Assembly: GCA_045536845.1 (NCBI GenBank)
Contig: JAZSOG010000011.1
Span: 34,172 to 98,171 of the forward strand
Length of the DNA: 64,000 nucleotides
Reading direction: 5' to 3'
From: Kiritimatiellia bacterium
GTDB lineage: Bacteria; Verrucomicrobiota; Kiritimatiellia; RFP12; UBA1067
Below, in pieces: positions 30,001-45,500 of this stretch (the stretch's first letter is position 1; every line of letters begins with the position of its first letter). The notes beneath the pieces are model-generated. The model did no database searches. It saw only the letters and a list, made by a program, of their open reading frames with translations, and was not told the origin of the DNA. The position numbers were made by a program, and so were the translations under genes.

Positions 30001-32478
30001 GCTCGCCGCGCCCTTGCGCAGGCGCGCCTCGTCGACGGCGCCGACAAAGTAGGCCTCGCTGCCGTCCGAATCGCAGCCGATCGAGAGCGGATAGCCGTTT
30101 TCCGTGGCTTCCCGGATCGACCCCGTGCCGATCTGGGCCCCGTCGAGGAAGGCCGTCAGCGTGCTGCCGCGGTAGACGAACGCGAAGCGCATCCAGCCGG
30201 ACGAGACGATGTCGGAGAAGCTCGCCGAGATGGCGGTTTCCGAGGAGCCGCGGGCCGAAAGCTTGTTGTTCGCGTTCGCCAGCTCGACCTCCCAGCCGCC
30301 GCCGTCGTTGTATTCACGCTTCCGGGAGACGAGCCGGTCGTAGCCCTTCCGCGCCGTGGCGTCGTAGAAGCAGGAGAAAGTGAAGTTGCCGCCGAGGCCA
30401 AGGGAATTGTAGTTCGGGATCGTCAGGTAGTCCTTCACATCAGACGTGGCAGTCTGGCGCGCCGTGCCGACGGCACCTGCGGCCTGCGCGACCGAAACGG
30501 CGGACGACTTCGCGGGCGACGCGCCGAGGCCGTTGCCCGTCGCGTCCGCCACGGTGCCGGACGCCTCATTCATGTGCCAGACGCCAGCATAGTTCGTCCA
30601 AACGGCGGTCGGGTCGTTGTCGACGTTCGCCGCGCCGCCGAAGTACACCGTCAGTTCTGTTGCAGACGAAAGCGATGGCACCTTGACCCAGACGAGCGTC
30701 TCGCCCGCAGGATCGAAGGTGTCAACCTCGAACGGAAGCGAGGCGTCATTCTCGTCCGTGAAGAAGAGGTCCGTACCGTTTGCGCTTTGGTGGAGTAGCG
30801 CCGAGGCTTCGACGGGCAGACGCACAAGTACGGGGAAGTCCGCCCACGCCGTCTCGCCGATCTTCGCGAGCGCCGTCGCGGATGGCGTCAGCGTCATTTT
30901 CTTCGCGAAGTCCGTCTTTGAGACGGCGACCCGGTTGTGGAGAACCAGATTGGTCGAGGCTGTGGACGGCAGCTCGTAGTTTCCGGCGAGGAGCGTAACG
31001 GTGATCGTCACGTCCTCGTCGACTGTCACATCGTCCAGCGGCATGACCGGAAGAACCGCGCTAGCTGCGTTGGCGGGAATCGTGACGGCGACAGGCACCT
31101 CCCAAGTCGTTCCTTCCGTGCCCGCGCTGCCGGAAATCGTATAGTTCACCGTGAGCGGGAGCGAATCGTCATTGACGCGCGAAACCGTGACGCCACCCGC
31201 GACGAGGCCCTTCTCGTTCGCATCTGTTGTCGCGCCGAGAGACAGCACGCCCGTGTAGAGCGTCCCGGCGTCGGCTTCGACCGTTCCGTTCTCGTTCGTC
31301 GCGAGAACGGAGATCTCGTATGTCGTGTCCACCGCAAGGCCGGAGACGGTCCAGTTGGCCATGCCGCCATCGGCCACGGACTGCCAGCCGTTCGTCGTCG
31401 CGGAGGCGCCGTCGTCCGCAATCCAGGCCAGGTCGGCCGCGTTCGCGTCCTCGGTCGCCGAGAGCGCGTAGGTTGCCGCGCCAGTGCGAGACATGGCGAC
31501 GGTGCCAAGCGCCGGCACGAGGCGGGAGGCATGGGCGTAGGCTTCGTCTTCATCGGTCGTCACAAGAAATTCGTCGAAGGTGATATACTGGCTGTTGACC
31601 TTGTAGTGGCCGAGCATCTGAAGGTAGGAGGGCTTAGCCGATCCGCTAACGAGCGCAATGCCGTTCGTCGTGAACGTCCACTCGAAGTCGGTTGTCAGGG
31701 TGTTGGTCGGAGCGGCGTAGAACGAGAGGGTGTCGTTGCCGTTTTCGCCTATGTCGATTTTCGCGATGCAGGCGCATCGAAGTGTCTTCGACGTGTCGAT
31801 GGTGAAGAGAGGTTTCGTGAAGGTCGCGCCGTCCGCGGGGTTCTTGACATAGGCGGCAACCTCCAGCGTCCCGTTGCGGTTGCGGACGCCCATGTAGATG
31901 CCGTTCGCGATGTTGCATTGGTCGCCCGTCGTCGGCTTTTCGATCGCCTCGGTGCCGAGGCCGGCGATCCAGTAGTTCCATTCGCCGAGGTAGGACGTGC
32001 TTAGGGCGGCTTTGGGAACCTGCATCAGGAATCGAAAGTAGATGGAGCCGGACGTCGGCCACGTGCAGGTAAGCTTCCGCTGCTGGGCGCGGTTGTCGCG
32101 GGTGGCACTGGTCGCCGTGGTGTTGTAGAGGACAGCGCGCAAATCCTTTGTTCCGTGGACAGTTCCATCCTTCCAAATGTCGGGAAGCTGGAGTCCGTCG
32201 GGTTGTGCAACAAAGACGCCCGTTCCGGAATTCCAGCCATTCACCTTGTCGAGACCGATCGAGTCGATGCCGGACTTCTTTCCGTTGAGGGACGAGGCTG
32301 TGTAGTCGGACGTGGCCGTGTAGTCGGCCGAGCTGAAGCCCTCGTAGACAAGAACCTCCGCGCGCGCTTCCGGCGCGGAGAGCGCAAACGCGAGAAGAGC
32401 CGCTACAAGCGGGAACATTCCGCGCGCGAGACGCGATTTAAGAATCGAACCGGAACCTTCGGTATGTTTCATTGCCAT
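27091..32478 (-). CDS. giant secreted surface protein (1795 aa): LamG-like N-domain, FN3-like + Calx-beta modules (x2), DUF2341 + LamG, long G-rich parallel beta-helix, C-terminal tail ...GIGTVILVR
   Basis: Calx-beta-type blocks VSRVNDDSLPLTVNYTISGSAGTEGTTWEV..VTITVTLLAGNYE and ISRSDTAHDLTVSYTVDGTAMEGQTF... DUF2341-like DENDASLPFEVDTFDPAGETLVWVKVP. LamG-like VWHMNEASGTVADATGNG...AVDEARL. Conserved signal peptide MAMKHTEGSGSILKSRLARGMFPLVAALLAFALSAPEARA. Confidence 0.85.
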   Translation of the reverse strand: MAMKHTEGSGSILKSRLARGMFPLVAALLAFALSAPEARAEVLVYEGFSSADYTATSDYTASSLNGKKSGIDSIGLDKVNGWNSGTGVFVAQPDGLQLPDIWKDGTVHGTKDLRAVLYNTTATSATRDNRAQQRKLTCTWPTSGSIYFRFLMQVPKAALSTSYLGEWNYWIAGLGTEAIEKPTTGDQCNIANGIYMGVRNRNGTLEVAAYVKNPADGATFTKPLFTIDTSKTLRCACIAKIDIGENGNDTLSFYAAPTNTLTTDFEWTFTTNGIALVSGSAKPSYLQMLGHYKVNSQYITFDEFLVTTDEDEAYAHASRLVPALGTVAMSRTGAATYALSATEDANAADLAWIADDGASATTNGWQSVADGGMANWTVSGLAVDTTYEISVLATNENGTVEADAGTLYTGVLSLGATTDANEKGLVAGGVTVSRVNDDSLPLTVNYTISGSAGTEGTTWEVPVAVTIPANAASAVLPVMPLDDVTVDEDVTITVTLLAGNYELPSTASTNLVLHNRVAVSKTDFAKKMTLTPSATALAKIGETAWADFPVLVRLPVEASALLHQSANGTDLFFTDENDASLPFEVDTFDPAGETLVWVKVPSLSSATELTVYFGGAANVDNDPTAVWTNYAGVWHMNEASGTVADATGNGLGASPAKSSAVSVAQAAGAVGTARQTATSDVKDYLTIPNYNSLGLGGNFTFSCFYDATARKGYDRLVSRKREYNDGGGWEVELANANNKLSARGSSETAISASFSDIVSSGWMRFAFVYRGSTLTAFLDGAQIGTGSIREATENGYPLSIGCDSDGSEAYFVGAVDEARLRKGAASAAEVALEYATMSDAAFFGMGEIESVDATAQKFQTPTAVRNANGTYTVTVVLSENSGDVGVIYDAGETAITNILATAANPGTYMDTPANLSANTTYNFAAYGKNANGTEVVAKGGVFYNGDISIEKISDANEYGLVPGVFRISRSDTAHDLTVSYTVDGTAMEGQTFVTLSGMATIPAGSSSVDVEVVPLIDAQTTSDTTVTVTLAAGLYGIDAQAGSAELTVVNLVAPAGYNTWVATSDGLASEGSNWSKGVAPAASDNILFDGRFSKANCEWDAAASATVASWTQTADYTGTVQIDTTYDATFPALNVSGDVEILGGNWTHKINGANDGQKYHLKAVVGGDFTLASGCKIDAEKKGYWAQKFPAGSAASAHAASYDGFGKVYGNVYRPADLGAGSSSAGSATDNKSGGGAVWLEVGGATTLNGTINVRGRQFDGSNTACGSAYVKAKSCSGSGSILANFSANSYYNGSRGSGGRVAIELTEATTLGFPVANVKINGINAGGSGGGGGTFYVKTADPAKPNGTLYLDDQRNKSYGARWHAPQAITAIPPGETWTFDAIVISGYGMLAVPAGTTLNLPNGPMSVSASSTRQGGIRYDGGTINWGSAPYEFASNWIFQANAPYTFDGDVVVHSGGAIGCLQFQGKTDFSDLTKCDITVNGNLTVESGGYLYANGGGPDMNINRDTVSFHGGQSAGASGNKAFDSVFAPRLPGYGTAKDDQATSAPGGGLLLLNVSGAFVNNGTVTANGSSASGAGASGGSIVLTAGTLSGTGTFKADSASGSIGSGGGGRIAVRLTNGGFAGGAETNFFARGATVVKDNASSDKSSSAGTVYLQGKSDGEKGGTIYVRNDKNALNTNTYTPIPAGVTKGGVSPDSAADFKKAALVVGDCGRVKFFDELRLRSVQVSSGSVLDLNGKTLTVKSAKIGDTKLAPGTYAAAQLEAVGLAEFIDTADGAGGTLRVLGIGTVILVR

Positions 32479-32607
32479 CCCCCTTGATGCATCGTTTCGT
32501 TTCTAGCGACATTCTACCGTCTCGGGAAAACATCGCCAATGCCCTGAACCATCGTTCGGCGACATTCTAACAAAACGAGGCAGGGATATGAATATACGAA
32601 AGTATAG
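32479..32607 (-). promoter_or_regulatory. conserved promoter/leader cassette, copy A: palindrome 32592..32607; P1 -10 TAGAAT 32564..32569; P2 TTGGCG (32534..32539), 17 nt, TAGAAT (32511..32516); SD AAGGGGGA
   Basis: About 90% identical over ~130 nt to 36714..36842 and 45370..45498. Confidence 0.6.
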
Positions 32608-32611
32608 GCGG

Positions 32612-32671
32612 GGCTGAAAAGTTGAAAGGCGGACAGCCTTCGGCTGGGGGATACGCATCTCCGAAGCGGAG
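32612..32671 (-). terminator. two short GC hairpins plus a T-rich tail after the 1341-aa gene
   Basis: Minus strand CTCCGCTTCGGAG (32659..32671) and CAGCCGAAGGCTG (32634..32646) followed by TCCGCCTTTCAACTTTTCAG. Confidence 0.45.
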
Positions 32672-32729: not shown

Positions 32730-35700
32730 TTACCTGACGATCAGCTGAAAACCGATGCCCTTCACGATAAGTTCACCGCCTGCGCCTTCGGCCGTGTCAA
32801 CGAGATAGTCCGCAAGCGTCCTCTCGCCGATTGCAACGGTCGATCCCGCGCCGTATGCGCCCGTCGCGAGCCTCACGCCGTTGACTGTCGCAGACTTTAC
32901 GGTGAGCGTATGACCTCCGAGGTCGAGGCTCGAATTAGCATCCGCTATCTCGATGCTGGCCGCATTCATGTCGGCATTCACCGCGGCACGTCCGTAGTCA
33001 CGCACGACGTACTTGACCTTCTTGTAGTCAGCAATCGCGTCGCCGCCATAGCCGAGCGACACCATTTCCGTGGTGTTGGTATTATTGGCGGCCTGGTTTC
33101 CAGCACTCATGGCGATATATACCGTGCCGCCCTTCTCGCCGTCGGCAGCAGTCTGAAGATAGACAGTGCCGGCGGAGGAGTCGGCGGGACCGCCGGAGCC
33201 CAAAACGCGGCCAGAGGCGGAAATCGCCCCGCTAAAGCTCGAGAAATCGGCACCGGGCGATGTAAGCTTCACGGCAATGCGTCCAGCCGATCCGCGAACG
33301 GCTTGTTTGGAACCTGCCTCTGCAACAACTCGCCCTGTCCCCGAGATAGTTCCTGCCGTAATGTCGATGGATCCCCCCGTTCCTCCAGAGCAGTTTCCGC
33401 CGTCCTTGTAAACCTCCAGCATGCCGTTGGCATTAGCCTCACCGTTGAGCGTAAGTGCGCCTGCCACGACAAGCTTGATGACACCGCCACTCGCTTCAGC
33501 CGCCTGACCGTTGGGCCACGGTACGGAGTTACCAGGAAGGCACGGTGCAAATACCGAGTCATATCCAGTGTAGAACTGCGCGCCCTTGTACTTGTACGCC
33601 AGGCACCGCCCGCCGTGCGTGTGACTCTCCAGAACGCCGGAAAAGCCGTTATTCAGGCTGTTCTTCTCCTTTTTGAGGCCGCATTGCTTCGCGACCAGCA
33701 AGCCATCCGATTCAACCGTCAAATCGCCGTTGACAGTCAGGTTACACGACACAAACGTCGGTAGCGAAGCCCCGTTGTCCACGATGTCCGCCATAGCGGG
33801 CACGCCGATCGCCGCGCCGCCCTTCACCGTGACATCGGCGTCCAGAACGAGGTTGGTCCATGTCGTCAGCATCCAGTTTCCGGTCATCGTCTGGTCGGTC
33901 GAGGAGCCGAGGTCGAGCGTGCCGTCCTCGTAGCGGATCGAGCCGTAGGCCGTGCTGCCCGACGCATTGAGCGAGAACACGCTGTCGAGGCCGTTCGGCA
34001 AATGCAGCGCCGTCCCGACGGGAACCGCAAGGACCGCGTAGTTGCCGAGACCGAGCGAATCGAACGTCCAGTCGCCGTCGGCGGTCACGGGAGTGCATCG
34101 CGCGATCGACGGCGCAAACGCCCCGTCGGCATTGTCGAGAAGGAGCGTGCCGTAGGTCTGCGAGGCATCCTTGATGAAAACCGTCCCGCAGCTGCCGTAG
34201 GTCGAACTCTGCCCGTTGCTGTTGTTGTAGGGATAGACCGAAGCCTTGAGATGGAGCGTCGAATAGTCGATCGGCGTCGACGAAGTGGCAATCACCGCGA
34301 CGCGACCGCCGACGCCGCGGTAGTTCTGCTCGGATGTCGCGACAGCGCTCGCGGAAATCGTGCCCGAACCCGAAACGGTTGCGCCGCGCACATAGACGGA
34401 TCCCGCCGCCCCTCCGCAACGGAGCGTCAAGTTTCGGTTCCAAGTGTCGGATCCCGTATCGGCGCCGATGTAGCCGTCCACGACGATGGCACCCAGAGAA
34501 GTGAGATAGACCGCGCCGCCGCCAATGCCGACATAGTAGTTGCCGCTCGCACGTTTGTAGGGCATGCCGATGTGGACCGGTTCTTTGAGGTTGTCGTAGG
34601 GCGCCTGTCCAGAAGCTCCGAACCATCCGCCGTGTGACGGCGGGGGAGAGGTGTGGTTGCCGGAGTTGGCATGGTAGTAACCCTTGTTCCTGGCATCGAT
34701 CCGGCCGTTCGCGCCGATGACGAGCGACCCCGCATCGATGCGGACGCGGTAGGTCTCGTTGTCGAGGAGATCCTGTAGGTAATCCGTCGCACTCTGCCAC
34801 TGCGTCCGCGACTGCGGATGGGTGATGGTGCCGCTCATGACCGCCATCGGCCCGGTGACGGTCAGGCACTGGAAGTCGCCCTTGCCGGGGTAGACCGTGT
34901 CGAGCGTAACGATGCCCGTGTAGCCGTTCTGCATCGTCCACGAGGCGACCATCGCGGTCGCAGCGGCATCCCATTCGCAGTTCTCGGTCGAGTAGAGGCC
35001 GTCGAAGAAAACGTTCTCCGCGGCGAGCGGCGCATGGCCCGCGGACCAGTTCGCGTCGGTCGAGGCAAGGAACTTTCCGTCCGTGGCCGTGCCGCCCATC
35101 CAATAGTTGCAACCTTCCGGCGTTGTGAAGTTCGCAATCGTCACGGCGACGGCCGCGGGGGCGGCGTAGTTGCCGGCGGCAAGGGAAACCGTCATCGTCG
35201 TGTCGACCGCCGTCGCCGCGTCGAGGATCGGCCTCACCGTGATTGTCGCGGAGGTTTCGCCCGCCGGAATCGTCACAGCGCCCGCGTCGTCCACGTAGTT
35301 CACCCCCGCGACGGCGGTACCGTCCGCGAAGGCGTAGTTCACAACGAGCGGCAGCGGGTCGGGATTCACGCGGCTTACCGTGAGTGTCGCGGGCGCGACG
35401 CCAAGCTCGGCCGCGTCGGAGACCTTCGCGAGCGACAGCGTCCCGCCGTAGATCGTGCCGAGAGCAAGCGTGTCCGTCTCGCCGCCTGCGTTCTCCGCCG
35501 TAAGCACCACTTCGTAGGTCGTGTCGTCCACTGGCGCGGCGAACGTGCCAGTAGCGGTGGAATCAGCCGTGAAGGAGCCCGCGCCGAGCGCAACCGGCGT
35601 TTCGACCGTCGCATCGTCGCCGTCCGAAAGCGTGTAGGTGATGGTCGCATCGCTCTGCGCGAGCGCGGCGGAGGCGGTGTAGACGCCGTTGGCGAGCGCA

Positions 35701-36713
35701 AGCGCGCCGCCTGAAAGTATCGGCTTGGTTGTGTTGACAAGCAGAATGTCCGAAAGGTCCGTGCCGACGACGAGTTCGTCCGCGCGGAAGCGGTCGCCGT
35801 TCGTGCCGTAGGGACCGGCCACGCCGATGCGCGTCGGGTAACTTGAATCCGTCATCAGATCGACCTCGACCGAATCGGACGCACCGCCGATCATCGCCCA
35901 TGGTGTATCAGTGGTGAAGGCGTCGGTCGCCATCGCGCCGGCGCGGAGAATCTCCTTTCCGTCCGTACCTGCGCCGACCTGGACCTCAGCATAGCAGATG
36001 TAGGTTGTTCCGAGAGTGATGCCAGTAACGAGCGGATACGACGTAAACGTCGTCCCGGAGGCGGTCGTATGCGCAAGGGAGAGAACGTACTGGTCGGAGG
36101 AATTCTTCCAGATGACGAACGCAAGCGACGCGGATGATTTCGTCAACAGGTAGTAGTCCGTCGTTCCAGTCGTAAGCCCGAAGCCGAAATAACCGCCGTC
36201 CTTCTGGGCAAGGGAGTCCCCCGCGTTGAGCTTGGTGGCCGCTTTGGAATCCAGATTGAGAAGCACGCGCACGTAGAGCATACCCGAGGAGACTTTTAGC
36301 GCCTCGGCGATCAGGCCATGACTCGTGGAACGAAGCGCAGCGCTACTTTCGCCAGGGTTCAGCCCGATCGAGCCGCCTAGGACGGAGAAGCCGGCGTCAG
36401 TCATGGCGGACGGCAAGGACAGCCCGAAATTCGTGCCGTAGACCTTCGGCTGGCTTCCGCTCATCTGCCAGGCCCCCGTAGCGAGTCCGACCGTATGGTC
36501 GCCGGTGACATTGGCGCCGGAGGGCGTCATCTGCGTGTTATCGCCCACATTGTTGTAGTCCACTGGATGGAAGCCCTCGTAGACGAGAACTTCGCCGTGT
36601 GCCGCAGGCGCGGCAAGCGCGCACGCGAGAAATGCCGCCACGAGCGGGAACATTCCGCGCGTAAAACGCGATTTAAGAATCGAACCGGAACCTTCGGTAT
36701 ATTTCATTGCCAT
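32730..36713 (-). CDS. giant secreted surface protein (about 1327 aa from MAMKY): LamG-like N-domain, FN3-like + Calx-beta module, parallel beta-helix, C-terminal tail ...GIGFQLIVR
   Basis: Start set at ATG 36713 (MAMKYTEGSGSILKSRFTRGMFPLVAAFLACALAAPAAHG), homologous to the starts of the other two giant genes and preceded by AAGGGGG. The track start at 36755 is upstream of the mapped -10 box. Calx-beta block LTVSRVNPDPLPLVVNYAFADGTAVAGVNY. Confidence 0.85.
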   Translation of the reverse strand: MAMKYTEGSGSILKSRFTRGMFPLVAAFLACALAAPAAHGEVLVYEGFHPVDYNNVGDNTQMTPSGANVTGDHTVGLATGAWQMSGSQPKVYGTNFGLSLPSAMTDAGFSVLGGSIGLNPGESSAALRSTSHGLIAEALKVSSGMLYVRVLLNLDSKAATKLNAGDSLAQKDGGYFGFGLTTGTTDYYLLTKSSASLAFVIWKNSSDQYVLSLAHTTASGTTFTSYPLVTGITLGTTYICYAEVQVGAGTDGKEILRAGAMATDAFTTDTPWAMIGGASDSVEVDLMTDSSYPTRIGVAGPYGTNGDRFRADELVVGTDLSDILLVNTTKPILSGGALALANGVYTASAALAQSDATITYTLSDGDDATVETPVALGAGSFTADSTATGTFAAPVDDTTYEVVLTAENAGGETDTLALGTIYGGTLSLAKVSDAAELGVAPATLTVSRVNPDPLPLVVNYAFADGTAVAGVNYVDDAGAVTIPAGETSATITVRPILDAATAVDTTMTVSLAAGNYAAPAAVAVTIANFTTPEGCNYWMGGTATDGKFLASTDANWSAGHAPLAAENVFFDGLYSTENCEWDAAATAMVASWTMQNGYTGIVTLDTVYPGKGDFQCLTVTGPMAVMSGTITHPQSRTQWQSATDYLQDLLDNETYRVRIDAGSLVIGANGRIDARNKGYYHANSGNHTSPPPSHGGWFGASGQAPYDNLKEPVHIGMPYKRASGNYYVGIGGGAVYLTSLGAIVVDGYIGADTGSDTWNRNLTLRCGGAAGSVYVRGATVSGSGTISASAVATSEQNYRGVGGRVAVIATSSTPIDYSTLHLKASVYPYNNSNGQSSTYGSCGTVFIKDASQTYGTLLLDNADGAFAPSIARCTPVTADGDWTFDSLGLGNYAVLAVPVGTALHLPNGLDSVFSLNASGSTAYGSIRYEDGTLDLGSSTDQTMTGNWMLTTWTNLVLDADVTVKGGAAIGVPAMADIVDNGASLPTFVSCNLTVNGDLTVESDGLLVAKQCGLKKEKNSLNNGFSGVLESHTHGGRCLAYKYKGAQFYTGYDSVFAPCLPGNSVPWPNGQAAEASGGVIKLVVAGALTLNGEANANGMLEVYKDGGNCSGGTGGSIDITAGTISGTGRVVAEAGSKQAVRGSAGRIAVKLTSPGADFSSFSGAISASGRVLGSGGPADSSAGTVYLQTAADGEKGGTVYIAMSAGNQAANNTNTTEMVSLGYGGDAIADYKKVKYVVRDYGRAAVNADMNAASIEIADANSSLDLGGHTLTVKSATVNGVRLATGAYGAGSTVAIGERTLADYLVDTAEGAGGELIVKGIGFQLIVR

Positions 36714-36842
36714 CCCCCTTAATACATCGTTTCGCTTCTGACGACATTCTACCACTTCGGGTAAATATCGTCAATGCTATGAACCATCGTTCGGCGACAT
36801 TCTAACAAAACGAGGCAGGGATAGGAATATACGAAAGTATAT
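36714..36842 (-). promoter_or_regulatory. conserved promoter/leader cassette, copy B: palindrome ATATAC-GAAA-GTATAT 36827..36842; P1 TGTTAGAAT (hexamer 36799..36804); P2 TTGACG (36769..36774), 17 nt, TAGAAT (36746..36751)
   Basis: Read directly and aligned by eye with copies A and C. Confidence 0.6.
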
Positions 36843-36933: not shown

Positions 36934-38118
36934 CTAACGTTCTTTGACTGCGCCTGCCACCCGTCTTATGTAAGAGCCGAACATCGGCACCGTGTAGGCT
37001 ACCGTACCGAGCGAAGGGGAATATATCATGCCCTTCTTGATCAAGGATCGCCGCATCATCGAAAGGGAATTTGCCGTCCTGCCCATCCGCACGGCAATGT
37101 CCGCCATCGACTGCGGCTTCTCGGGCACGCCGTCTGCCATCGCCATGAGAAACTTCTGCTCGGCAGCCGACACCCTGTCAAACCGCACCTCAAAGAAGCT
37201 CCTGTCGAGACTCTTTATCACCTGCGGCAATATCGACTTCACGTCGCTCGCCACAATCGGCGACCGCTCCGCATGCTGCCACACCTGATATCCGCATTCC
37301 TGGAGGAAGAAGGGATATCCCGCCGATGCCTTGAAAATCTCTGCAAAGGCGGCATTCTCCACTGCAATGCCATTGTCCTCGAACGGCTTCACTATGGCCG
37401 CCCACGACGCATCTTCATCCAATGCCCCAATCGGCTCGTAGACAAACATCCGCTCGGCGTATGTCTTGCTTTTCCCTACCAGCGTGCGGACCGTAGGAAG
37501 GCCGGAGCCGATCAAATACAGCGGAAGAAGCTCCTGCGCCGAACGATGAAGCGCCACGATAATGCCGCGCATAGCCTCTTCGTCCAAATTCTGAAGTTCG
37601 TCGATGTACAGACCGACCGCAGTCGAGGAAACCTTAGCAACGCGAGCTGTTGCGAGCAGTACCTGCGATAGATCAAGTTCCATGTTGCCAGACTCGCCTA
37701 TACCTCTATGAAGTTCAACCGACACGCCTACGTCGCCTATGTTGAGGGAGAACTTCCTGACAAAGTTTCCCAGAACCGCAAACGCCTCCTGGACACAGCC
37801 CTTCATCTTGCACTTGAAGTCAAGCGTGTATAAGGCCTCCTTAAGTTTCTGGGCAATATCCTCCAAGTCGCTTTTATCGCTTCTGATTTCCGATATCACG
37901 GAAATAATCCCGTTGTCTTTAGCCCGTTCAGACAGGTACTTCAAAAGAACAGTCTTGCCGACACCACGCTGGCCTATCAGCATCAAACCTCGCTCTGCAC
38001 GCTGAAGCTTCGCGCGCATCGCAACGACTTGTCCGTCCTCTATGACCTGATTCCTCCCTGCCAATTCTGGCGGCAAGTACCCAGCCCCAGGGGTGAATGG
38101 ATTTCTGATTCTGTCCAT
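36934..38118 (-). CDS. AAA/STAND-like ATPase with C-terminal winged-helix-like domain (Arch_ATPase/ORC-Cdc6-like ATP-binding protein)
   Basis: NPFTPGAGYLPPELAGR..., Walker A GQRGVGKTVLLKYL and Walker B GLYIDELQNL. The C-terminal region KFLMAMADG...MADIAVRMGRTANSLSMMRRSLIKKGMIY looks like a wHTH. Confidence 0.8.
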   Translation of the reverse strand: MDRIRNPFTPGAGYLPPELAGRNQVIEDGQVVAMRAKLQRAERGLMLIGQRGVGKTVLLKYLSERAKDNGIISVISEIRSDKSDLEDIAQKLKEALYTLDFKCKMKGCVQEAFAVLGNFVRKFSLNIGDVGVSVELHRGIGESGNMELDLSQVLLATARVAKVSSTAVGLYIDELQNLDEEAMRGIIVALHRSAQELLPLYLIGSGLPTVRTLVGKSKTYAERMFVYEPIGALDEDASWAAIVKPFEDNGIAVENAAFAEIFKASAGYPFFLQECGYQVWQHAERSPIVASDVKSILPQVIKSLDRSFFEVRFDRVSAAEQKFLMAMADGVPEKPQSMADIAVRMGRTANSLSMMRRSLIKKGMIYSPSLGTVAYTVPMFGSYIRRVAGAVKER

Positions 38119-38607: not shown

Positions 38608-41388
38608 TCACCTGGCCGCGAGCTCGTAGACCATCGTCGGGGCGTTTGCACCTTCGCCGGCGGCAATCTTGGCGGTGAAGCGGTAGACGCCACCCTCGTA
38701 GACCGCGGGAACCTGGCGGAGACGCGTGCCGTCCGACGCGACCGCCCAGACCTTGAGGCCCTTGTTTGAATTCTTCAGAGCAATCTTCGCTTCGCCGGCC
38801 GCGGCGAGATAGGGAAGCGCGCCCCAGTTCGTCATCTCCGTTCTGCCAGCGCTCTTGAACTCCGCGCCCGAGTTGAGGACGTCCGTGAGATGGAAGATCA
38901 CGACGCGCTTCGACGACGCAAGCGGCGCGCCGTCCATCGACGAGGCGGATACGCAGCAGAACGCGGTCACGCCCGAGACGGCGAGCGGACCCGCCGCGAG
39001 GTCGGACTTCTTGATCGAGCATACGCCCGCCGTGCGCGGCGTGGAGACCTTGAGCGTCCCCTTGTTGTAGTCGATCGAAAGCTCGCGCGTTTCCGAGACG
39101 CCCGCTTTGTTGAATGCGGGTATCTCGCCCTTGTTCGACGCTGTATAGATCTTGTCCACGTGCAGCGCGGGCTTCTTCCCCCCGTCCGCGACGAACGAGC
39201 CGATGCGGCAGATGTGCCCGAGCTCGGTGAACGGCAGCGGGAAGAGACCCCTCGACCACATGTCGCCGAGTCCGCCGCCGAAAGCCTCCGCCGCGGTGAC
39301 GCCGTAGGCCGCCGTCCCCTTCGCGGGCGCGGCGTCGCGGCGTCCGAAGAGTAGGACGGCCTGGCGCTCGGTGAGCTGGGAGAGCGGATCGGTTACCATA
39401 TCAAAGCCTTTCGACGGACTCGGCTTAAACATGTTGCCCTTGTCGTGACTCCACGCAAAGCGGTAGATGCCGTCCCAGTCCTGGAGCGAGGCGTAGGCGC
39501 CCATCATGAGTCCGCCTTCCGCGCGCCACTGGTTGGGGTTGCAGAAGTTCCACTCCGAGACGGTGAACGGCTTTCCGAATACGCGCGTACACGCCATCAT
39601 GATCGGCAGCGAGTACGCGGCGCTTCCGTTCTTGAGGTTCGCCTGGTTGTTGAAGCGCATCACCACGTTGCCGGAGTTGCCGTGGTAGATGTCGGCGTAC
39701 TGATGGTTGTCTACGACCTCGAGCGCCTCGCGCTCGTAAGTCTGGCCCATGTTCTCCCACCAGTTGCCGCCCGAGATGAGCGTCTTCACGCCCGCGTCCT
39801 TAAGCCGCTTCGACATACGGCGGTTCGCGTTCGCCTTAACCTCGTAAAGAAACTCGGCGAACTCCTTGCGCCTGCCGATGTCCTTCTTCTCGTACTGCGG
39901 ATAGCCCTTCCCCTTCGCCCACTCGTTGTACTTCTTGACGTAGACGTCTTCCGCACCTGACCAGACGGACGCGATGGAGTCCTCGTTGAGGAGCGTGACG
40001 AAAAGGACGGCCGGATCGTCCTTCCACTTTATCCCCGTGTATGGGTTCACGTGGTCGAAGAGTTCCATCGAGCGCTTGAACCACAGGTCCTCGGCGGGCT
40101 TGTGGATCGGGACGATCGCCTTGATGGTGCCGCAGTGAAGCGGCTTGTCGAAGCCCTCGCAACTTCCGTAGCTGCCCATCGCGTAGAGATCGAAGGTTAT
40201 GTAGACGCCCGCCTTCTTGCATGCCGCGACGAGGTAGTCGAGCTGGTCGAGACGCTGCGGAGAGATGGTCGGCCATGTACGACGGTTCCAGATGTCGTTC
40301 CATTCCTCCTTCGTGATCGTGACGTCGAGGTGGTGGAGGCGTATTGTGTTCCATCCGCGCATCACGAAGTCGCGCACCGCGCGGTCCGCTTCATCTTTCG
40401 AGAGGAAGTTCGCGCTGAAGCAGAGATTGCCGCCGACGAAGCGTCGCGGCGTCCTCTTCGCATCCTTCTCGAAGACGAAATGCCCCTCCGGCGACACGCG
40501 CGCGAAGCCGTACGCGCCCGCGGGCTCGTCGTGGCGCGTGACCTTCGAGAAGTCGAGGATCGTGCCAGGCTTGACGTCGTTCGTCCACGGGAACTTCACC
40601 CACTTGTCTCCCGCGGCGAGCTTCAGGGGCGGAGGCGGAAGCCCGAGCTTTACGCTGCCGCTCGCCCTTCCGAGCGAATCGGCGAAGACGCCCTGCACCT
40701 CGAACTCGACGGTCGAGCGCGCGGCGTTCTTCGCGTCCGGGAACTCGATGCGCAGCTCGAAGAGCTCCTTCTTGTCCTTTCGCGCGTCGGCGAGGACGGC
40801 GTTTCCGGAGACGACGGACACCCTCAGCTTCTTCTTCCCGCCCTTAGAGGCGATCTCGATGCGGCTTTTGTCACCAAGCCCCAGGAACTCCTTCCCGTAG
40901 GCCGCCGGAAGCTTCGCGCCGCCGGCCGTTCCCTCCGCGAAGTCGTTCACTGGCAGCGGGAAGCACAGGTACGCGCGCTCGAGCTTCAGCGGCGCGCCGT
41001 CCGTGGAGGAGAGCGTCCAGCGGACGTGCACCTTGGCAGCGTCGCCCTTAGTGACGTCGAAGAACTCCTCGCGGATCGCGATGCCGCGTCCGCCCGGCCA
41101 CATCTTCGCCGTGTGGAGAAGGCCCTTGCCGAACTTCGGATCGTCGACGGTGGACTTCTTGTGCTCCTTCGCGGCGTAGTCCTGCGCGGCGAACTGCCAG
41201 CCCGGGCCGAACACTATGAAGTTGACAAATCCCCATTCGACCTTGGGATCGTTCCGGATGATCCCCTCGACCTGGGGAAGCCCGCGCCCCTCAACTCCGA
41301 TCGTCGCGTACGTGTCTGCGAAAACCGCCGTAGCAGCTGACAGCGTGGCGGCCGCAACAGCCGAAACAATCATGCACCTTATCTTCAT
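38608..41388 (-). CDS. secreted glycoside-hydrolase-like protein (clan GH-A TIM-barrel type), paralog of <1..2703
   Basis: Start set at ATG 41388 (MKIRCMIVSAVAAATLSAATAVFA), preceded by GGAGGGAG. NTIRLHHLDVTI, VTLLNEDS (NE acid/base-like) and FTVSEWNFCNP (nucleophile-like) fit a (beta/alpha)8 clan GH-A enzyme. Lies 50 nt downstream of the 1303-aa gene. Confidence 0.8.
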   Translation of the reverse strand: MKIRCMIVSAVAAATLSAATAVFADTYATIGVEGRGLPQVEGIIRNDPKVEWGFVNFIVFGPGWQFAAQDYAAKEHKKSTVDDPKFGKGLLHTAKMWPGGRGIAIREEFFDVTKGDAAKVHVRWTLSSTDGAPLKLERAYLCFPLPVNDFAEGTAGGAKLPAAYGKEFLGLGDKSRIEIASKGGKKKLRVSVVSGNAVLADARKDKKELFELRIEFPDAKNAARSTVEFEVQGVFADSLGRASGSVKLGLPPPPLKLAAGDKWVKFPWTNDVKPGTILDFSKVTRHDEPAGAYGFARVSPEGHFVFEKDAKRTPRRFVGGNLCFSANFLSKDEADRAVRDFVMRGWNTIRLHHLDVTITKEEWNDIWNRRTWPTISPQRLDQLDYLVAACKKAGVYITFDLYAMGSYGSCEGFDKPLHCGTIKAIVPIHKPAEDLWFKRSMELFDHVNPYTGIKWKDDPAVLFVTLLNEDSIASVWSGAEDVYVKKYNEWAKGKGYPQYEKKDIGRRKEFAEFLYEVKANANRRMSKRLKDAGVKTLISGGNWWENMGQTYEREALEVVDNHQYADIYHGNSGNVVMRFNNQANLKNGSAAYSLPIMMACTRVFGKPFTVSEWNFCNPNQWRAEGGLMMGAYASLQDWDGIYRFAWSHDKGNMFKPSPSKGFDMVTDPLSQLTERQAVLLFGRRDAAPAKGTAAYGVTAAEAFGGGLGDMWSRGLFPLPFTELGHICRIGSFVADGGKKPALHVDKIYTASNKGEIPAFNKAGVSETRELSIDYNKGTLKVSTPRTAGVCSIKKSDLAAGPLAVSGVTAFCCVSASSMDGAPLASSKRVVIFHLTDVLNSGAEFKSAGRTEMTNWGALPYLAAAGEAKIALKNSNKGLKVWAVASDGTRLRQVPAVYEGGVYRFTAKIAAGEGANAPTMVYELAAR

Positions 41389-41457
41389 TTCTCCCTCCGT
41401 TATCAAAGCCGATTAATTCACGCTGCGGCGCTGCGAGTTCAACCACTCTGCACGCAA

Positions 41458-44400
41458 TTATCTGACAATCAACTGAAAACCGCCACCCGTCACGATAAGT
41501 TTACCGCCAGCGCCTTCAGCCGTGTCAACGAGATAGTCTGCCAGCGTTCCTTCTCCGATCTCAATCTTCGATCCCGCGGCGTATGTGCCTGGCGCGAGCT
41601 TCACGCCATTGACCTTCGCAGACCTGACCGTGAATGTCTTGCCGTTGAGATCAAGCACAGTGCCAGAGTCCATTTCGAGCACCGACATCCTGAGACCTGC
41701 GAAGAGCTTCACCCTTGCAGCCGCCTCGGTCTTGAGCGATGCCTTGCGGAAATCGTCCGTCTCGCCACCGGCCTTGACGGAAGGAATCGCCGTGAACGCG
41801 ACATTGTTCGCCGTGTTGCCGGTGTTGCGGATGACAATCGTGCCCGCACCTTCCGCCTGGTTCGCCGTCTGGAGGTAGATCGAGCCGGCGGACGAAGAGC
41901 GGTCAGCGGCAAACTTGGACGTGTAGTAGCCTTTGGCGTTGATCTTTGTCAACCAGGCATCGGAGAACGTTTCGCCCGCGCCCGTGAGGCGCACGGCGAT
42001 GCGCCCGCCGCCGCTTGAATTGCCGGAATCATCCTCAGAATAGTTGCGCGAATTGCCGTTCGCCTCAATGCGCCCAGCACCTTCAAGACGTCCGGCGGTG
42101 ATGTCGATCGATCCCGGCGCGCCGGAACGAGCGTCCGCAACGATCGGTGTCGCGCTTGCGACGCCGTCCAGCGTCAGCGTTCCGCCGACCACGAGGCGGA
42201 TTGCCCCGCCGCCGACGTTGACGCGGCCGTTGTCGGCGCCGAACGTGCCGGGATGGCGCGGGCGGAAGAACGAGTCGTAGGCAACATTCGACGTCGACCT
42301 TCCGCACTGTCCGCCATGGCAGGAGGTGCTTCCGCCGCCAACAGTCGCGGCACCGGTCGCGATGTAGCCGCCGCGGACGGCGCGCAGATACGAACTCGAT
42401 GCGACGTGCATGTCGCCGGAGACGGCAAGGCCGCAGGTTCGCACATTATTCGATGTGTCGGAGTAGAGCAGTAGCGTTCCCACGCCTGCCCCATTCGTGA
42501 CGACAAGGTTGCCGTCTAGCGCGAAGTCCTTAGGCTCGAATATCCACTTGCCGGAAATCGTGTGCGTCGCCGCGCTCGGCAGCAGGAGCGTGCCGCCGTC
42601 GACGATCAGGCCCGTTTCGTCGAGCGTGTTGCCGGTCGAGGAAACGGACGCGAGGCCGCCGCGCAGGTCGAGCGTCGTTCCGGTCGGAACCTCGAGGATG
42701 GCGTTCGCGCCGAAGACGATTTCGTCGAGGACCCACGTCTGACCCGCCGGGATGCGCGTGAGCTGGTTGGGCTTCGGGCGATATGCGTACATCCCGTACT
42801 TGTTCGTCCGGTCGCGGAGATACAGGACGCCGTTGGGCTTGAGCGGCGAGCGAACGAGAATCGTGCCGACGCTGCCGACCTTTGCGTAGGACGATACGCC
42901 GCCAAGCGCCGTAAGGTTCGCGTCCGGGAGACCGAGTTCACCGTTCGTGATGAGGACGGAGACGCGACCTCCGGCACCGGAGTTCTGGTTGGAGCCGGAA
43001 CTCGTGTTCGTGCAGTCCGCGGAGATCTTGCCCGATCCGGACAGCGTCGCGGTCTTAAGATAGACGGCGCCGCCCGAGCCGGAATAGCCGTTCCACTGTC
43101 CCCATGCGGAGACGCTGTCGGAACGGATCGAGCCGTCGAGTTGTGTACCGCCCGTGACCTCAATCCAGACCGCGCCGCCGGCAGGGGCGTTGTATGTATT
43201 GTCAGCCGCCGGACTTGAACCGACGCCGTACGGCTCGGTCAGACTGCCCCAGGAGAGTCCGCCGTCGTAGCTTCCGCCGTAGGCGCCGGCGCCTGTTCCG
43301 GAGTGAGGTCCATAGGCACCCTTGCCGGTGGCGTGGATCTGCGCGCCGGACGCGACTGCCAGGTTTCCGCCGACATCGATGCGCAGACGGTAGTAGTCTT
43401 CCTTGTTCGTGGCGTTGTGCGCCTTGTGAGTTACCTTGCCTGAAGCAATAGTCATGTCGCCGGAAACGGTCAGACAGGTAAAGCCACCCTTCTCCGGGAA
43501 TACGGTATCGACCGTGACCGTGCCGGTGTAACCATTCGTCTGCGTCCAGGAGGCGACCGTCGGCGTCGCGGCGGCGTCCCACTCGCAGTTCGCCGTCGAG
43601 AATCGCCCGTCGAAAAGAATGTTGTCGGACGCGGCAGGTGCGACGCCCTTGGACCAGTTGGAGCCTTCCGACGCGAGGCCGTCCGCCGTCGCAATCCATG
43701 TGTTGTAGCCAGCGGGGGCAGTGAGATTGACGAGCGTCAGCGTTGCAGACGTGACGGCAGGCATCTCGTAGTTACCTGCAGCAAGCGTCACGGTAATTGC
43801 GATGTCCTCGGTGACAGCGGAGTCAAGGATCGGCGCGACAAGTAGGTATCCTGTCGTTTCGCCAGCCGGTATTGTGACGGCGGTCGGTGCGTCCCATGTC
43901 GTTCCCTCGGCGGCTCCGACAGCGGAAGAGGAAATCGTGTAGTTCACCGTGAGCGGGAACGGGTCGTCGTTGGCACGCGAAACTGCAACCTTGCCGGCGA
44001 CAAGACCGTTCTCGTTCGCGTCCGTCGTCGCACCAAGAGAGAGTTCTCCCGTGTAGAACGTTCCGACGACCTTCTCGGCCGTGTCGCTGGCGTTCGTCGC
44101 AAGAATTGTCGCCTGCCAGGTCGTGTCCGCCGAAAGTCCGGAGATTGTCCATGTCGCAGAGTTTCCTTCGGCAACGGACTGCCAGCCGTTAGTCGAGACT
44201 GTCTCGCCATCCGATAGAATGTACGAGAGATCGGCGGCGTTGGCGTCCTCGGTCGCAGAGAGCGAGTAGGCGAGTGCACCAGTGCGGGAGAGGGAGACTG
44301 TTCCAAGATCGGGGGATTCGGTGTTGATGTAGAAGAACTCGAGCTCGTCGATTTGAATGTAGGAATCGCTCTCGTCCTGGTTCGCCGTAACCGCGAAACG

Positions 44401-45369
44401 ATAGGAGTCATAGGCGGTGTTGTTCTGGAACTCATAGTAACGGCTTTCGAGCGACGACCACCCAGTTTCCGACGATTGCGCGTCGAGGACGGCCCACATG
44501 ACGTCCTCCGCGTTCTTCGCCTCAAACGTCCAGGTCTTCGGCATGCGCTTGTCGTAGAAGTAGGGGGTCGTGCTCGGGCAGTACACCTTGTAGGCGTTGA
44601 CGACCGTCGGGGAGTCGAAGGTGTAGATCCAGTCCACGGTCGTGCCGCTGTGGATGGAGCGGTCGTCGTTGTTGTGGGCTGTTCCGTTGTCGAAGGCGTT
44701 TTTCGCGGGCTTCACCCAGTCGCCGGTGGTGGTCGTCGTAACGGCGCCGTTCGGATTCGTGAGATCCGTGAGGACAAATCCGGTGTCGCAGAGGAACTGG
44801 ATTTCGTAGATCTGCAGGTAGGAGTTCGAGCCGAGAATCTCCGTACAGCTGAACTTGTAGTATTCGTAAGCCGTCTCGTTTTCAAAGTGGAAAGACTTCA
44901 TCACGTCTCCGACGGGCCAAGTCACGCTCGAGCGCGCGTCAAGCTGCGTCCATGTCGAGCCGTCGTTCGAACCGTGGAAAGTCCACGCCTTCGGCGAGCG
45001 TTTGTTCGATTCATTTGCGTTTTTGATTCGAATACGGAGGATGTTGACCTTCGTCGGGGCGTTGAACTTATAGACAAGGTACATCGGATTGCTGGTCGTC
45101 TCCGCAAGCCATCTGCAGTCATCGCTGCTCCAGTTGCCGTCAAAGGCGTGATCGGCCGTGTAAGGGCTAAGCGTCGGGGATGACTCGACGACAGCACCGG
45201 CGGAGGCTGAGGTGTCGACGAGCAGTTGGTCGGGCGGCGTAGTTGCCGCGGCGCGCGCTTCGAGCGCGGCGAGCGCACACACGAGAAATGCCGCCGTTAG
45301 CGGGAATATTCCGCGTGCGAAACGCGATTTCAGAATCGAACCGGAAACTTCGGTATATTTCATTGCCAT
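41458..45369 (-). CDS. giant secreted surface protein (1303 aa): two F5/8 type C (discoidin/CBM32-like) domains, FN3-like + Calx-beta module, parallel beta-helix, C-terminal tail ...GGGFQLIVR
   Basis: Discoidin-type blocks YTADHAFDGNWSSDDCRWLAE...MYLVYKF..VNILRIRIKN...WTFHGSNDGSTWTQLD, and a second copy ..AKNAFDNGTAHNNDDRSIHSG..WIYTF. Calx-beta block VAVSRANDDPFPLTVNYTISSS. Signal peptide MAMKYTEVSGSILKSRFARGIFPLTAAFLVCALAALEARA. Confidence 0.85.
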   Translation of the reverse strand: MAMKYTEVSGSILKSRFARGIFPLTAAFLVCALAALEARAAATTPPDQLLVDTSASAGAVVESSPTLSPYTADHAFDGNWSSDDCRWLAETTSNPMYLVYKFNAPTKVNILRIRIKNANESNKRSPKAWTFHGSNDGSTWTQLDARSSVTWPVGDVMKSFHFENETAYEYYKFSCTEILGSNSYLQIYEIQFLCDTGFVLTDLTNPNGAVTTTTTGDWVKPAKNAFDNGTAHNNDDRSIHSGTTVDWIYTFDSPTVVNAYKVYCPSTTPYFYDKRMPKTWTFEAKNAEDVMWAVLDAQSSETGWSSLESRYYEFQNNTAYDSYRFAVTANQDESDSYIQIDELEFFYINTESPDLGTVSLSRTGALAYSLSATEDANAADLSYILSDGETVSTNGWQSVAEGNSATWTISGLSADTTWQATILATNASDTAEKVVGTFYTGELSLGATTDANENGLVAGKVAVSRANDDPFPLTVNYTISSSAVGAAEGTTWDAPTAVTIPAGETTGYLLVAPILDSAVTEDIAITVTLAAGNYEMPAVTSATLTLVNLTAPAGYNTWIATADGLASEGSNWSKGVAPAASDNILFDGRFSTANCEWDAAATPTVASWTQTNGYTGTVTVDTVFPEKGGFTCLTVSGDMTIASGKVTHKAHNATNKEDYYRLRIDVGGNLAVASGAQIHATGKGAYGPHSGTGAGAYGGSYDGGLSWGSLTEPYGVGSSPAADNTYNAPAGGAVWIEVTGGTQLDGSIRSDSVSAWGQWNGYSGSGGAVYLKTATLSGSGKISADCTNTSSGSNQNSGAGGRVSVLITNGELGLPDANLTALGGVSSYAKVGSVGTILVRSPLKPNGVLYLRDRTNKYGMYAYRPKPNQLTRIPAGQTWVLDEIVFGANAILEVPTGTTLDLRGGLASVSSTGNTLDETGLIVDGGTLLLPSAATHTISGKWIFEPKDFALDGNLVVTNGAGVGTLLLYSDTSNNVRTCGLAVSGDMHVASSSYLRAVRGGYIATGAATVGGGSTSCHGGQCGRSTSNVAYDSFFRPRHPGTFGADNGRVNVGGGAIRLVVGGTLTLDGVASATPIVADARSGAPGSIDITAGRLEGAGRIEANGNSRNYSEDDSGNSSGGGRIAVRLTGAGETFSDAWLTKINAKGYYTSKFAADRSSSAGSIYLQTANQAEGAGTIVIRNTGNTANNVAFTAIPSVKAGGETDDFRKASLKTEAAARVKLFAGLRMSVLEMDSGTVLDLNGKTFTVRSAKVNGVKLAPGTYAAGSKIEIGEGTLADYLVDTAEGAGGKLIVTGGGFQLIVR

Positions 45370-45500
45370 TCCCCTTAGTGCATCGTTTCGCTTCTGGCGA
45401 TATTATACCACTTCGGACAAATATCGTCAATGACCTGAACCATCGTCAGATGACATTCTAACAAAACGAGGCAGGGATAGGAATATACAAAAGTATATTC
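45370..45500 (-). promoter_or_regulatory. conserved promoter/leader cassette, copy C: palindrome GAATATAC-AAAA-GTATATTC 45481..45500; P1 TAGAAT 45455..45460; P2 TTGACG (45425..45430), 17 nt, TATAAT (45402..45407)
   Basis: Read directly. The distal palindrome arm overlaps the stop codon of the upstream beta-helix gene (45499..45501). Confidence 0.6.

Follow-up and report, generated by a model that had tools for sequence, protein, structure and literature searches.

A shared promoter, leader and signal-peptide cassette before large exported proteins of an uncultured rumen Kiritimatiellae bacterium: a candidate portable 5′ module

Three large genes, here called A, B and C, are located in a 64-kb stretch of DNA from an uncultured rumen Kiritimatiellae bacterium; the whole stretch was analysed and is referred to below as the window. 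All three lie on the minus strand, which corrects the initial annotation of this DNA. Each gene is preceded by one copy of a shared 5′ cassette of ∼250 nucleotides (nt), which consists, in order, of an operator-like palindrome, two promoter-like elements (P1 and P2), a Shine-Dalgarno (SD) sequence and a long signal peptide. As the initial annotation had proposed, the cassette can be read as a portable expression and export module, specific to a lineage of uncultured rumen Kiritimatiellae; we give this reading a probability of about 0.72. It is supported by the unrelated passengers found behind the cassette, by swapped leaders, by a break of synteny inside the signal-peptide codons and by the mosaic structure of the copies.

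Three cassette copies and their elements

The three upstream regions had been put at roughly 90% identity, and gapless alignment agreed with this figure: 187 of 208 positions (89.9%) were identical between A (32400..32607) and B (36635..36842), in register, 183 of 208 (88.0%) between B and C (45291..45498), and 176 of 208 (84.6%) between A and C. When a profile built from all copies was run against the window with nhmmer, exactly three cassettes were recovered (E = 1e-85 to 1e-90; next match, E = 4.7). An exact-core search of the window gave three matches against 0.00 expected, and neither nhmmer nor tblastn revealed a fourth, diverged or partial cassette there. The upstream edge is sharp and lies at the palindrome, ∼129 nt 5′ of the first ATG; further upstream, the copies resemble one another only in a weak terminator-like T-rich stretch. 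Downstream, similarity reaches 105-145 nt into the coding sequence, ∼40 nt past the left-hand ends of the intervals compared above, and the cassette ends at the predicted signal-peptidase site. In the codon alignment, nucleotide identity was 0.84-0.86 over the first 35 codons, followed by a median of 0.50-0.55. The downstream parts had been described as strongly divergent; this holds for identity, but homology persists over ∼900-1000 residues.

All of the elements named in the initial annotation, namely the palindrome, P1, P2, the SD and an internal repeat, were found (Table 1). The palindrome reads TATACTTT[CT]GTATA in the three copies (TATAC-N4-GTATA), measures 14-16 base pairs (bp) in its extended form, ATATAC-N4-GTATAT, and is separated by 22-23 nt from the extended -10 of P1. 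P1, TGTTAGAAT, begins 23 nt after the palindrome and has an extended -10 (TGnTAnAAT) without a recognisable -35; TG and TAnAAT were present in 21 of 21 full copies from all genomes (see below), as well as in promoter-only versions with different flanks. Between P1 and P2 lies GTCGCC.AACGATGGTTCA. P2 (TTG[AG]CG, 17 nt, TA[GT]AAT) resembles a near-consensus sigma-70 promoter, and its three copies, with 11/12, 10/12 and 9/12 matches, were the best in a 16-kb scan that used the sigma-70 consensus. The leader after P2 is ∼35 nt long and carries the strong SD AAGGGGG, which is followed by ATGGCAATGAAA. The internal repeat, TAGAATGTCGC, was matched in A at 11 of 11 nt (100%) at a spacing of 53 nt and in B at 12 of 13 nt (92%), and was degenerate in C. 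It is plausible that P1 and P2 arose by internal duplication. If transcription from P1 is assumed to start 7 nt after its -10, the palindrome is centred at approximately -41.5 to -42.5, a position that would be compatible with a dimeric regulator touching or occluding RNA polymerase.

As a separate observation, the P1 spacer ATCCCTGCCTCGTTT was complementary to the 5′ untranslated region (5′UTR) and SD, AAACGATGCATCAAGGGGGAT. Sequestration of the SD by this spacer was considered and dropped, given that it requires read-through transcripts and that the variant copies are without obvious co-variation.

The n-region of the signal peptide had been given as MAMK[YH]TE..., beginning at the first ATG. 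The conserved peptide was confirmed and the start codon was revised: translation begins almost certainly at the second ATG (MK[HY]TEG...), because most copies in other genomes are without the first ATG, because the spacing of the SD, which directly adjoins the first ATG and precedes the second by 6 nt, fits the second alone, and because the public calls for all three proteins begin there (1325, 1793 and 1301 amino acids (aa)). The peptide of 38-40 residues is laid out as MK[HY]TEG.GSILKSRFARG followed by FPLVAALLAFALAAP-x-A-x-A; across the copies, the extended conserved n-region is MK(HT)HTEG.GSILKSRFARG, after which the hydrophobic core begins. By inspection of the 25 copies, the peptide has the features of a Sec-type signal for signal peptidase I, with K2, K12, R14 and R17 in the n-region, the h-region FPLVAALLAFALAA and the c-region P-[ES]-A-[RH]-[AG], and cleavage is predicted at A-x-A. 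Searches with Pfam and NCBIfam (E ≤ 0.01) gave no N-terminal match to ESPR (PF13018), YSIRK (PF04650) or KxYKxGKxW (TIGR03715) in A, B or C. A Tat signal was ruled out, there being no RR pair (KSRFARG) and no match to a Tat model, and a lipoprotein signal was ruled out as well, the lone Cys alternating with Phe (codon 31, TTT/TGC) in a context that is not a lipobox.

When 1.84 billion representative proteins were searched exhaustively with HMMER, the peptide was found in only 18 clusters. A word-indexed search of proteins, for which a profile of the 48 N-terminal residues was used, returned 7 short fragments and no full-length carriers; the latter were found by the exhaustive search. All homologs with names were designated "Kiritimatiellae bacterium", and the signal is confined to a very small clade.

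Copies in other genomes: passengers, sub-modules, mosaicism and constraint

A DNA pattern (palindrome plus extended -10) was scanned over 185,579 species genomes, and matches were obtained in the rumen metagenome-assembled genomes (MAGs) RUG12612 (8 sites), RUG12088 (3) and RUG14632 (1), and in one Kiritimatiellia MAG (2). A peptide-based metagenome scan yielded 12 more loci. In total, 25 distinct copies of the module, 21 full and 4 partial, were collected from at least five Kiritimatiellae genomes and from metagenome contigs. Pattern matches in Firmicutes (Guptibacillus and others) were judged unrelated (one orthologous site, besides the small number of matches that chance would produce in AT-rich genomes). 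At the Bacillaceae loci (L006, L007, L011, L012, L014, L015, L017, L024 and L025), a longer palindrome, GTAGTATACTTTCGTATACTAC, precedes a conserved gene for a small membrane protein and is as far from the extended -10 TGATAAAAT as in the cassette; this likeness is probably a coincidence.

In accordance with the proposed portability, at least six unrelated mature N-termini were found behind the module in related genomes. They comprise the EVLVYEGF type (A and B), F5/8-type-C domains (C, L010, L018, L032 and others), DUF2341/LamG (L009, L026, L021 and others), a 426-457-aa protein without the C-terminal tail of the family (L001, L026 and L031), the ELLLYDGF type (L020) and the beta-helix half joined straight to the peptide (L028). 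The three window genes themselves are paralogs and not unrelated passengers.

Synteny with the window was seen in a sheep-rumen contig (L001), where 5091 nt covering the BD-FAE/GH39 gene, an 827-aa NosD-like gene and the cassette are 95.7% identical to the window sequence. This match breaks off within the signal-peptide codons, 52 nt from their beginning; past that point, gene C continues in the window and an unrelated 426-aa gene in L001. Depending on the genome, the cassette in the slot right behind the stop codon of the 827-aa gene was joined to one of at least four different passengers. When gene B was compared with its nearest homolog in L001, the palindrome and P1 were 82% identical and the mature protein was 72% identical in nt from its exact N-terminus, while the ∼190 nt between them differed (another leader and another signal peptide). 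Moreover, close homologs of the family body (84% identical, P0025; 85%, P0024) carry other N-terminal domains or signal peptides.

As the distribution of partial copies shows, the cassette is made up of two separable sub-modules, palindrome+P1 on the one hand and P2, leader and signal peptide on the other. Palindrome+P1 was found alone at two further places in the window (Table 1), as well as at L001 15108 and in L005 and L023. At the first window site, before the 827-aa NosD/beta-helix gene, the -10 ends 6 nt before the ATG, and the gene is apparently leaderless; its arrangement of palindrome, -10 and ATG is conserved in five genomes. The second window site lies upstream of a gene for a paralog of an exported 932-aa protein. 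The window contains five TATAC-N4-GTATA sites, against 0.13 expected, and each of them is located 22-23 nt 5′ of an extended -10 and before a gene of an exported protein. Because all five share this geometry and precede signal-peptide genes, the palindrome is best read as a regulon operator, and the exported-protein genes behind palindrome+P1 probably form a regulon. The other sub-module was found without palindrome and P1 in L030 and L037, right after the stop codon of the upstream gene, and L031 and the second copy of L009 had nothing of the cassette but the P2 -10, the leader and the signal peptide.

The idea that the cassette provides an anchor for recombination agrees with the mosaic structure of the copies. 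Among 13 copies, the Hudson-Kaplan Rm was at least 18 in ∼260 nt and 463 of 1431 informative site pairs failed the four-gamete test, numbers that recurrent mutation and short-read chimeras can inflate. The nearest neighbour of each window copy switches by segment; in copy A, for example, the P1-P2 segment matches L010 exactly, the leader and n-region come nearest to L020/L021, and the h-region is once more nearest to that of L010. Identities within and between genomes were 0.90/0.90, 0.81/0.84, 0.82/0.79 and 0.66/0.66. Since likeness within genomes is not above that between genomes, the copies point to the shuffling of old selected variants and not to rapid concerted homogenisation.

No variation was seen across the 21 full copies in the arms of the palindrome, in the TG or at positions 1, 2, 4, 5 and 6 of both -10s, and this also held in the 9 copies that had been found by the peptide and not by the DNA pattern. 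Within the -10s, variation was confined to the third position (G/A/T), the one that matters least in sigma-70 promoters; for P2, this was observed across 25 copies. The flanks varied, with major-allele frequencies of 0.76-0.91. The mean pairwise difference of the non-coding part was 0.15, lower than the synonymous divergence (pS) of the adjacent signal-peptide codons (0.26-0.42), and the ratio of nonsynonymous to synonymous divergence (pN/pS) was 0.43-0.58 for the GSILKSRFARG core and for the h/c region. Based on the invariant positions, on a non-coding divergence below the synonymous one and on pN/pS below 1, purifying selection appears to act on the DNA elements as well as on the peptide, on the latter with moderate strength.

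Gene family, alternative 5′ modules and neighbourhood

The C-terminal body of gene B is shared by at least 134 homolog clusters, which form a Kiritimatiellae-specific family. Signal peptides were examined in 119 homologs; 31 had the cassette peptide and 88 had others, of at least eight recurrent types including MKRILPLLLA..., MSLRLSKLSFAIL..., MANSSGKSRNSKSNGRR... and MQEDNEMKPTDSRDKSF.... These types are combined combinatorially with the same mature N-termini, and hybrid peptides were also found, in which the common h/c region ACALAAPEARA stands behind different n-regions. For the MKRILPLLLA type, four loci with different passengers (L041-L044) were compared. A promoter-like region was conserved in three of the four, and in all four the 5′UTR consisted of 6.8 tandem copies of the 8-mer GACCATAC abutting the ATG; a recognisable SD was not found in the 5′UTR of these loci. 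As this second type travels with conserved upstream DNA of its own, it behaves like the first module, and the cassette is one of at least nine alternative 5′ modules in the family.

Genes A, B and C are paralogous over ∼70% of their length (∼900-1000 residues), with 33-42% aa identity, and each begins with the cassette peptide. In A, the peptide is followed by an EVLVYEGF-type N-module, a Calx-beta-like region, a DUF2341-type module, the shared beta-helix-like body and the tail ...GIGTVILVR; in B, by an EVLVYEGF-type N-module, Calx-beta, the shared body and the tail ...GIGFQLIVR; and in C, by two F5/8-type-C (discoidin-like) domains, the shared body and the tail ...GGGFQLIVR. The Pfam matches were DUF2341 (A), Calx-beta (B) and F5/8 type C (C), and a PDB sequence search with gene B gave no matches. 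The common C-terminal tail, ...LDLNGKTLTVKSAK.NGVKLAPGTY...LVD..GG.L.V.GGGFQLIVR-stop, has no model in Pfam or NCBIfam and is not present in the 426-aa cassette protein; it may serve as a signal for sorting or for anchoring.

Two patches of high identity stand out between the bodies, one of 237 nt (83.5%) between A and C, encoding PAGYNTW..ASWTQT, and the other in the last 176 nt of B and C (82%), where the similarity continues for ∼40 nt beyond the stop codon. Being isolated, they hint at gene-conversion-like exchange. The patch between A and C is the start of the shared body, and with surroundings that are ∼55% identical it looks like a gene-conversion tract. An internal segment of gene A (residues ∼520-620, KTDFAKKMTLTPSATALAKIGETAW...DTFDPAGETLVWVKV) corresponds to the mature N-terminus directly behind the signal peptide in DUF2341-type members (L026, L009 and P0046). 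On account of this segment, gene A looks composite, an EVLVYEGF-type N-module having been fused before a whole DUF2341-type protein.

A G7 tract was observed ∼50 codons into a cassette-bearing gene (L001 10168-10174; also in L002/L038). It splits the gene into a 62-aa signal-peptide open reading frame (ORF; P0003) and a 1198-aa body, and G6 would mend the frame; P0009, a fragment from another sample, is in frame through the same spot (NEGGGLTGDV). The tract could be an error of sequencing, the mark of a pseudogene or a site of phase variation by strand slippage. In the proteins P0021, P0017 and P0009, the peptide is followed by a phage Gp58-like AT-rich body, by a FolC-like segment or, in one protein of 91 aa, directly by the C-terminal tail; such proteins probably arose during metagenome assembly, as chimeras or through collapse at the repeat.

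The gene for the 932-aa exported protein comes after gene C with no cassette between them, and the two are probably co-transcribed. Other neighbours in the window encode NosD/beta-helix, BD-FAE/GH39, subtilase, SASA esterase and GH-like exported proteins, and those in L001 include a polysaccharide deacetylase and a cellulase. Judging by this domain content, the passengers are most reasonably described as large glycan-binding proteins, secreted or at the surface, whose genes lie in a polysaccharide-utilisation neighbourhood that varies between strains. Among the giant-protein genes there are also three stand-alone AAA ATPase genes, one of them directly upstream of cassette B, and the AAA_22 gene weakly resembles PEP-CTERM-system/GspA-like ATPases.

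Table 1. Positions of the cassettes, their elements and other features (window positions unless a contig is named)
Feature	Position	Strand	Remarks
Gene A	27091..32472 (from first ATG 27091..32478)	-	1793 aa
Gene B	32730..36707 (from first ATG 32730..36713)	-	1325 aa
Gene C	41458..45363 (from first ATG 41458..45369)	-	1301 aa
Cassette A	32359..32606	-	Window sequence, profile search
Cassette B	36594..36841	-	Window sequence, profile search
Cassette C	45250..45497	-	Window sequence, profile search; starts directly after stop codon of 827-aa gene
Palindrome A	32593-32606	-	
Palindrome B	36828-36841	-	
Palindrome C	45484-45497	-	TATACTTTTGTATA
P1, copy A	TG 32571-32572; -10 32564-32569	-	-10 TAGAAT
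P1 -10, copy B	36799-36804	-	TAGAAT
P1 -10, copy C	45455-45460	-	TAGAAT
P2, copy A	-35 32534-32539; -10 32511-32516	-	TTGGCG; TAGAAT
P2, copy B	36746-36774	-	TTGACG-17-TAGAAT, 10/12, TG present
P2, copy C	45402-45430	-	TTGACG-17-TATAAT, 11/12, TG present
SD A, B, C	32479-32485, 36714-36720, 45370-45376	-	
Start codons A, B, C	32470-32472, 36705-36707, 45361-45363	-	Second ATG
Signal peptide A	32359-32472	-	38 codons, MKHTEGSGSILKSRLARGMFPLVAALLAFALSAPEARA then EV
Signal peptide B	36594-36707	-	MKYTEGSGSILKSRFTRGMFPLVAAFLACALAAPAAHG then EV
Signal peptide C	45250-45363	-	MKYTEVSGSILKSRFARGIFPLTAAFLVCALAALEARA then AA
C-terminal tails	27091-27300, 32730-32905, 41458-41633	-	
Palindrome+P1 before 827-aa NosD/beta-helix gene	47989..48030	-	TATACTATTGTATA, 22 nt, TGGTATAAT; ATG at 47982
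Palindrome+P1 before paralog of exported 932-aa protein	2773..2815	-	TATACCATCGTATATTCC, 23 nt, TTTGGTAAAAT; ATG at 2703, gene runs off left end of window
Complementary P1 spacer and 5′UTR/SD	32569-32582 with 32488-32501; 45464-45484 with 45368-45388	-	
High-identity patch, A and C	29108-29344 and 43505-43741	-	
Internal segment of gene A	∼30900-30600	-	
932-aa protein gene	38608-41392		
AAA ATPase genes	4773-6083, 24525-25811, 36934-38118	-	AAA_14 with or without DUF4143; AAA_22
Tandem 8-mer 5′UTR	L041 548-602; L042, L043 and L044 just upstream of position 601		MKRILPLLLA type

Interpretation, alternatives and known systems

The observed anatomy, distribution, modularity, mosaicism and constraint pattern of the copies would fit the following mechanism. 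Firing of P1 would be regulated through the palindrome, where a dimeric protein would act in the manner of a class II activator or as a repressor over the -35 region; P2 would provide strong transcription and the SD efficient initiation of translation, and the signal peptide, cleaved at A-x-A, would direct the export of large surface or secreted glycan-binding proteins of the beta-helix type. Purifying selection would keep the module, and homologous recombination, with breakpoints at the edges and inside, would move it. Exchange of modules would produce new combinations of promoter, signal peptide and passenger, and strain-variable gene islands. In a further-reaching version, the n-region EG.GSILKSRFARG would have a specific role as a dedicated sorting signal to a lineage-specific export or surface-assembly pathway, and at least nine modules would form a combinatorial "plug-board" library; we hold this version to be unlikely. 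If true, the plug-board would rewire when and how each surface protein is made, and to our knowledge such systematic exchange of 5′ modules has not been described outside small Borrelia and Mycoplasma lipoprotein families.

Several points weigh against the portable-module reading. The comparison was made mostly on short-read MAG and metagenome assemblies, in which repeats of ∼250 nt can be mis-joined, and part of the mosaicism and some of the passenger combinations could be artefacts; some database proteins with the peptide (P0021 and P0017) are obvious chimeras. The invariance of the palindrome and the -10s is partly circular in the 12 copies that were found with the DNA pattern. Constraint on the peptide is no more than moderate (pN/pS ∼0.45), and in codons 1-8 a pN/pS above 1, with a pS of just 0.076, points to constraint at the nucleotide level and not at the peptide level. 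P1 and P2 are promoters predicted from sequence, and the -42 geometry hangs on the assumed start. Finally, a regulator gene linked to the palindrome was not found with Pfam in the window, where the closest genes for regulators, one of an AraC/PBP hybrid and one of a LuxR-type response regulator, are ∼14-16 kb off.

Among the alternatives, neutral concerted evolution would have gene conversion homogenise the 5′ ends of tandem paralogs without any function. The mosaic copies and their Rm do indicate frequent exchange, and the window copies share a short GGGG-GATGGCAATGAAA leader/start variant, their P1-P2 regions being of three different subtypes. This explanation is nevertheless improbable, given that identity is not higher within than between genomes, that the subtypes are common to several genomes, that substitutions avoid the sigma-70-critical positions and the palindrome arms, and that non-coding divergence is below the synonymous one, with pN/pS below 1. 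It was also considered that the leader is an RNA-level element (a riboswitch, an attenuator, a target of a small RNA or an RNA-binding protein, or an anti-SD) and that P1 and P2 are incidental. Conservation of the 5′UTR and of the first eight codons at the nucleotide level would be expected of such an element, as would the complementarity of the P1 spacer to the SD region and a modest hairpin over the P2 spacer, CGATRTT...GAATRTCG, which tolerates only wobble-compatible changes. However, cmscan of positions 26000-49000 gave no relevant Rfam family at E ≤ 1 (a lone spurious microRNA match lay elsewhere), the leader folded no better than shuffled sequence (minimum free energy z = 0.04), and the alifold covariation term was -0.44, with a single compensatory pair. 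The P2 leader is also short, and two quite different 5′UTR variants coexist, so that an RNA element is very improbable.

Antigenic or phase variation, in which the cassettes would be 5′ anchors for programmed switching as in the Campylobacter fetus sap or Mycoplasma vsa/vsp systems, perhaps with slippage in the G tract, was judged to have a remote chance of being correct. The direct repeats do lie in a strain-variable island, the slot behind the 827-aa gene varies by genome, the frameshift at G7 in L001 contrasts with an intact frame in another sample, and the G-run of the SD ranges from 4 to 7 among the copies. Yet each copy has complete promoters and a start, so there are no silent cassettes, the orientation is the same throughout, Pfam scans of the window ORFs gave no invertase or recombinase, and no rearrangement within a population was seen, the four G7 assemblies all coming from the same sheep-rumen data. 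A plain recent tandem duplication, with the cassette as the slowest-evolving part of true paralogs that also share their tails and ∼40 nt past the stop codon, is largely refuted, since identity does not continue equally through the genes but is 85-90% as far as the signal-peptidase site and has a median of 50-55% nt beyond it, the cassette also precedes unrelated proteins (the 426-aa protein and P0006/P0007), bodies as similar as those of P0025 and P0024 have other front ends, and synteny is broken inside the cassette.

In the rumen and gut, Kiritimatiellae are abundant degraders of glycans with hardly any cultured members, and we know of nothing on their promoters, regulators or export signals. 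The portable-module reading would offer starting points in this lineage, namely a well-supported candidate promoter pair and the candidate operator of an exported-protein regulon, and the lineage-specific signal peptide could help to recognise or engineer secreted proteins in Kiritimatiellae. The cassette would further be a natural example of front-end exchange by recombination outside pathogen lipoprotein families, an exchange that would account for the differences between strains in their islands of surface-protein genes.

The closest precedent is the erp family of Borrelia burgdorferi (ospE/ospF/elp, with its "upstream homology box" on cp32 prophages), as an analogy and not as a homology. 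In the erp genes, one promoter/operator/leader-peptide sequence stands before mature parts of many origins, recombination is frequent, and the shared operators lead to co-expression (PMC10016077). Conserved upstream and leader sequences on many genes, independent mature parts and recombination were likewise found here. The erp genes encode small lipoproteins on prophage plasmids of a spirochete, whereas the cassette precedes non-lipoprotein secreted proteins of 0.4-1.8 thousand aa in chromosomal islands; unlike erp, it has two independently occurring halves and two tandem promoters, and the Kiritimatiellae family has at least nine 5′ modules against one in erp. The erp operator is bound by the known proteins BpaB, BpuR and EbfC, whereas the palindrome here is a candidate operator.

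YSIRK-G/S and KxYKxGKxW are specialised long signal peptides of Gram-positive surface proteins, which are shared across passengers. A conserved extension of the n-region on very large secreted proteins is likewise described for the long signal sequences of autotransporters (PMC2805444). Like ESPR, YSIRK and KxYKxGKxW, the cassette peptide is unusually long, with a conserved n-region, and is borne by large proteins with different passengers; unlike them, it has the unrelated motif EG.GSILKSRFARG, a distribution of 18 clusters, and a short tail, ...GGGFQLIVR, in place of an autotransporter beta-barrel. In the Mycoplasma vsp/vlp/vsa and Campylobacter fetus sap systems, conserved 5′ regions are recombination substrates in front of divergent bodies, and switching depends on promoter poly(A)/poly(GA) tracts, on site-specific invertases or on a single movable promoter. 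The cassettes differ from these in being co-oriented and in having complete promoters, and no recombinase or switch element was found with them by Pfam. The E. coli galP1/P2 promoters combine a CRP site at -41.5 and an extended -10 with a second promoter for the same gene. The cassette resembles them in its palindrome ∼41.5-42.5 bp 5′ of the presumed start, in an extended -10 without a -35 and in a second promoter, but its half-sites TATAC/GTATA (5-N4-5) fit no known CRP/FNR consensus, and P1 and P2 are 53 nt apart and not 5. The phenomenon is of a known kind, that of shared promoter/leader-peptide cassettes of surface-protein families, and involves no new principle; what is new here is the lineage, the separable sub-modules, the tandem promoters, the regulon-type operator, the undescribed signal-peptide motif and the presence of several alternative modules within a single family.

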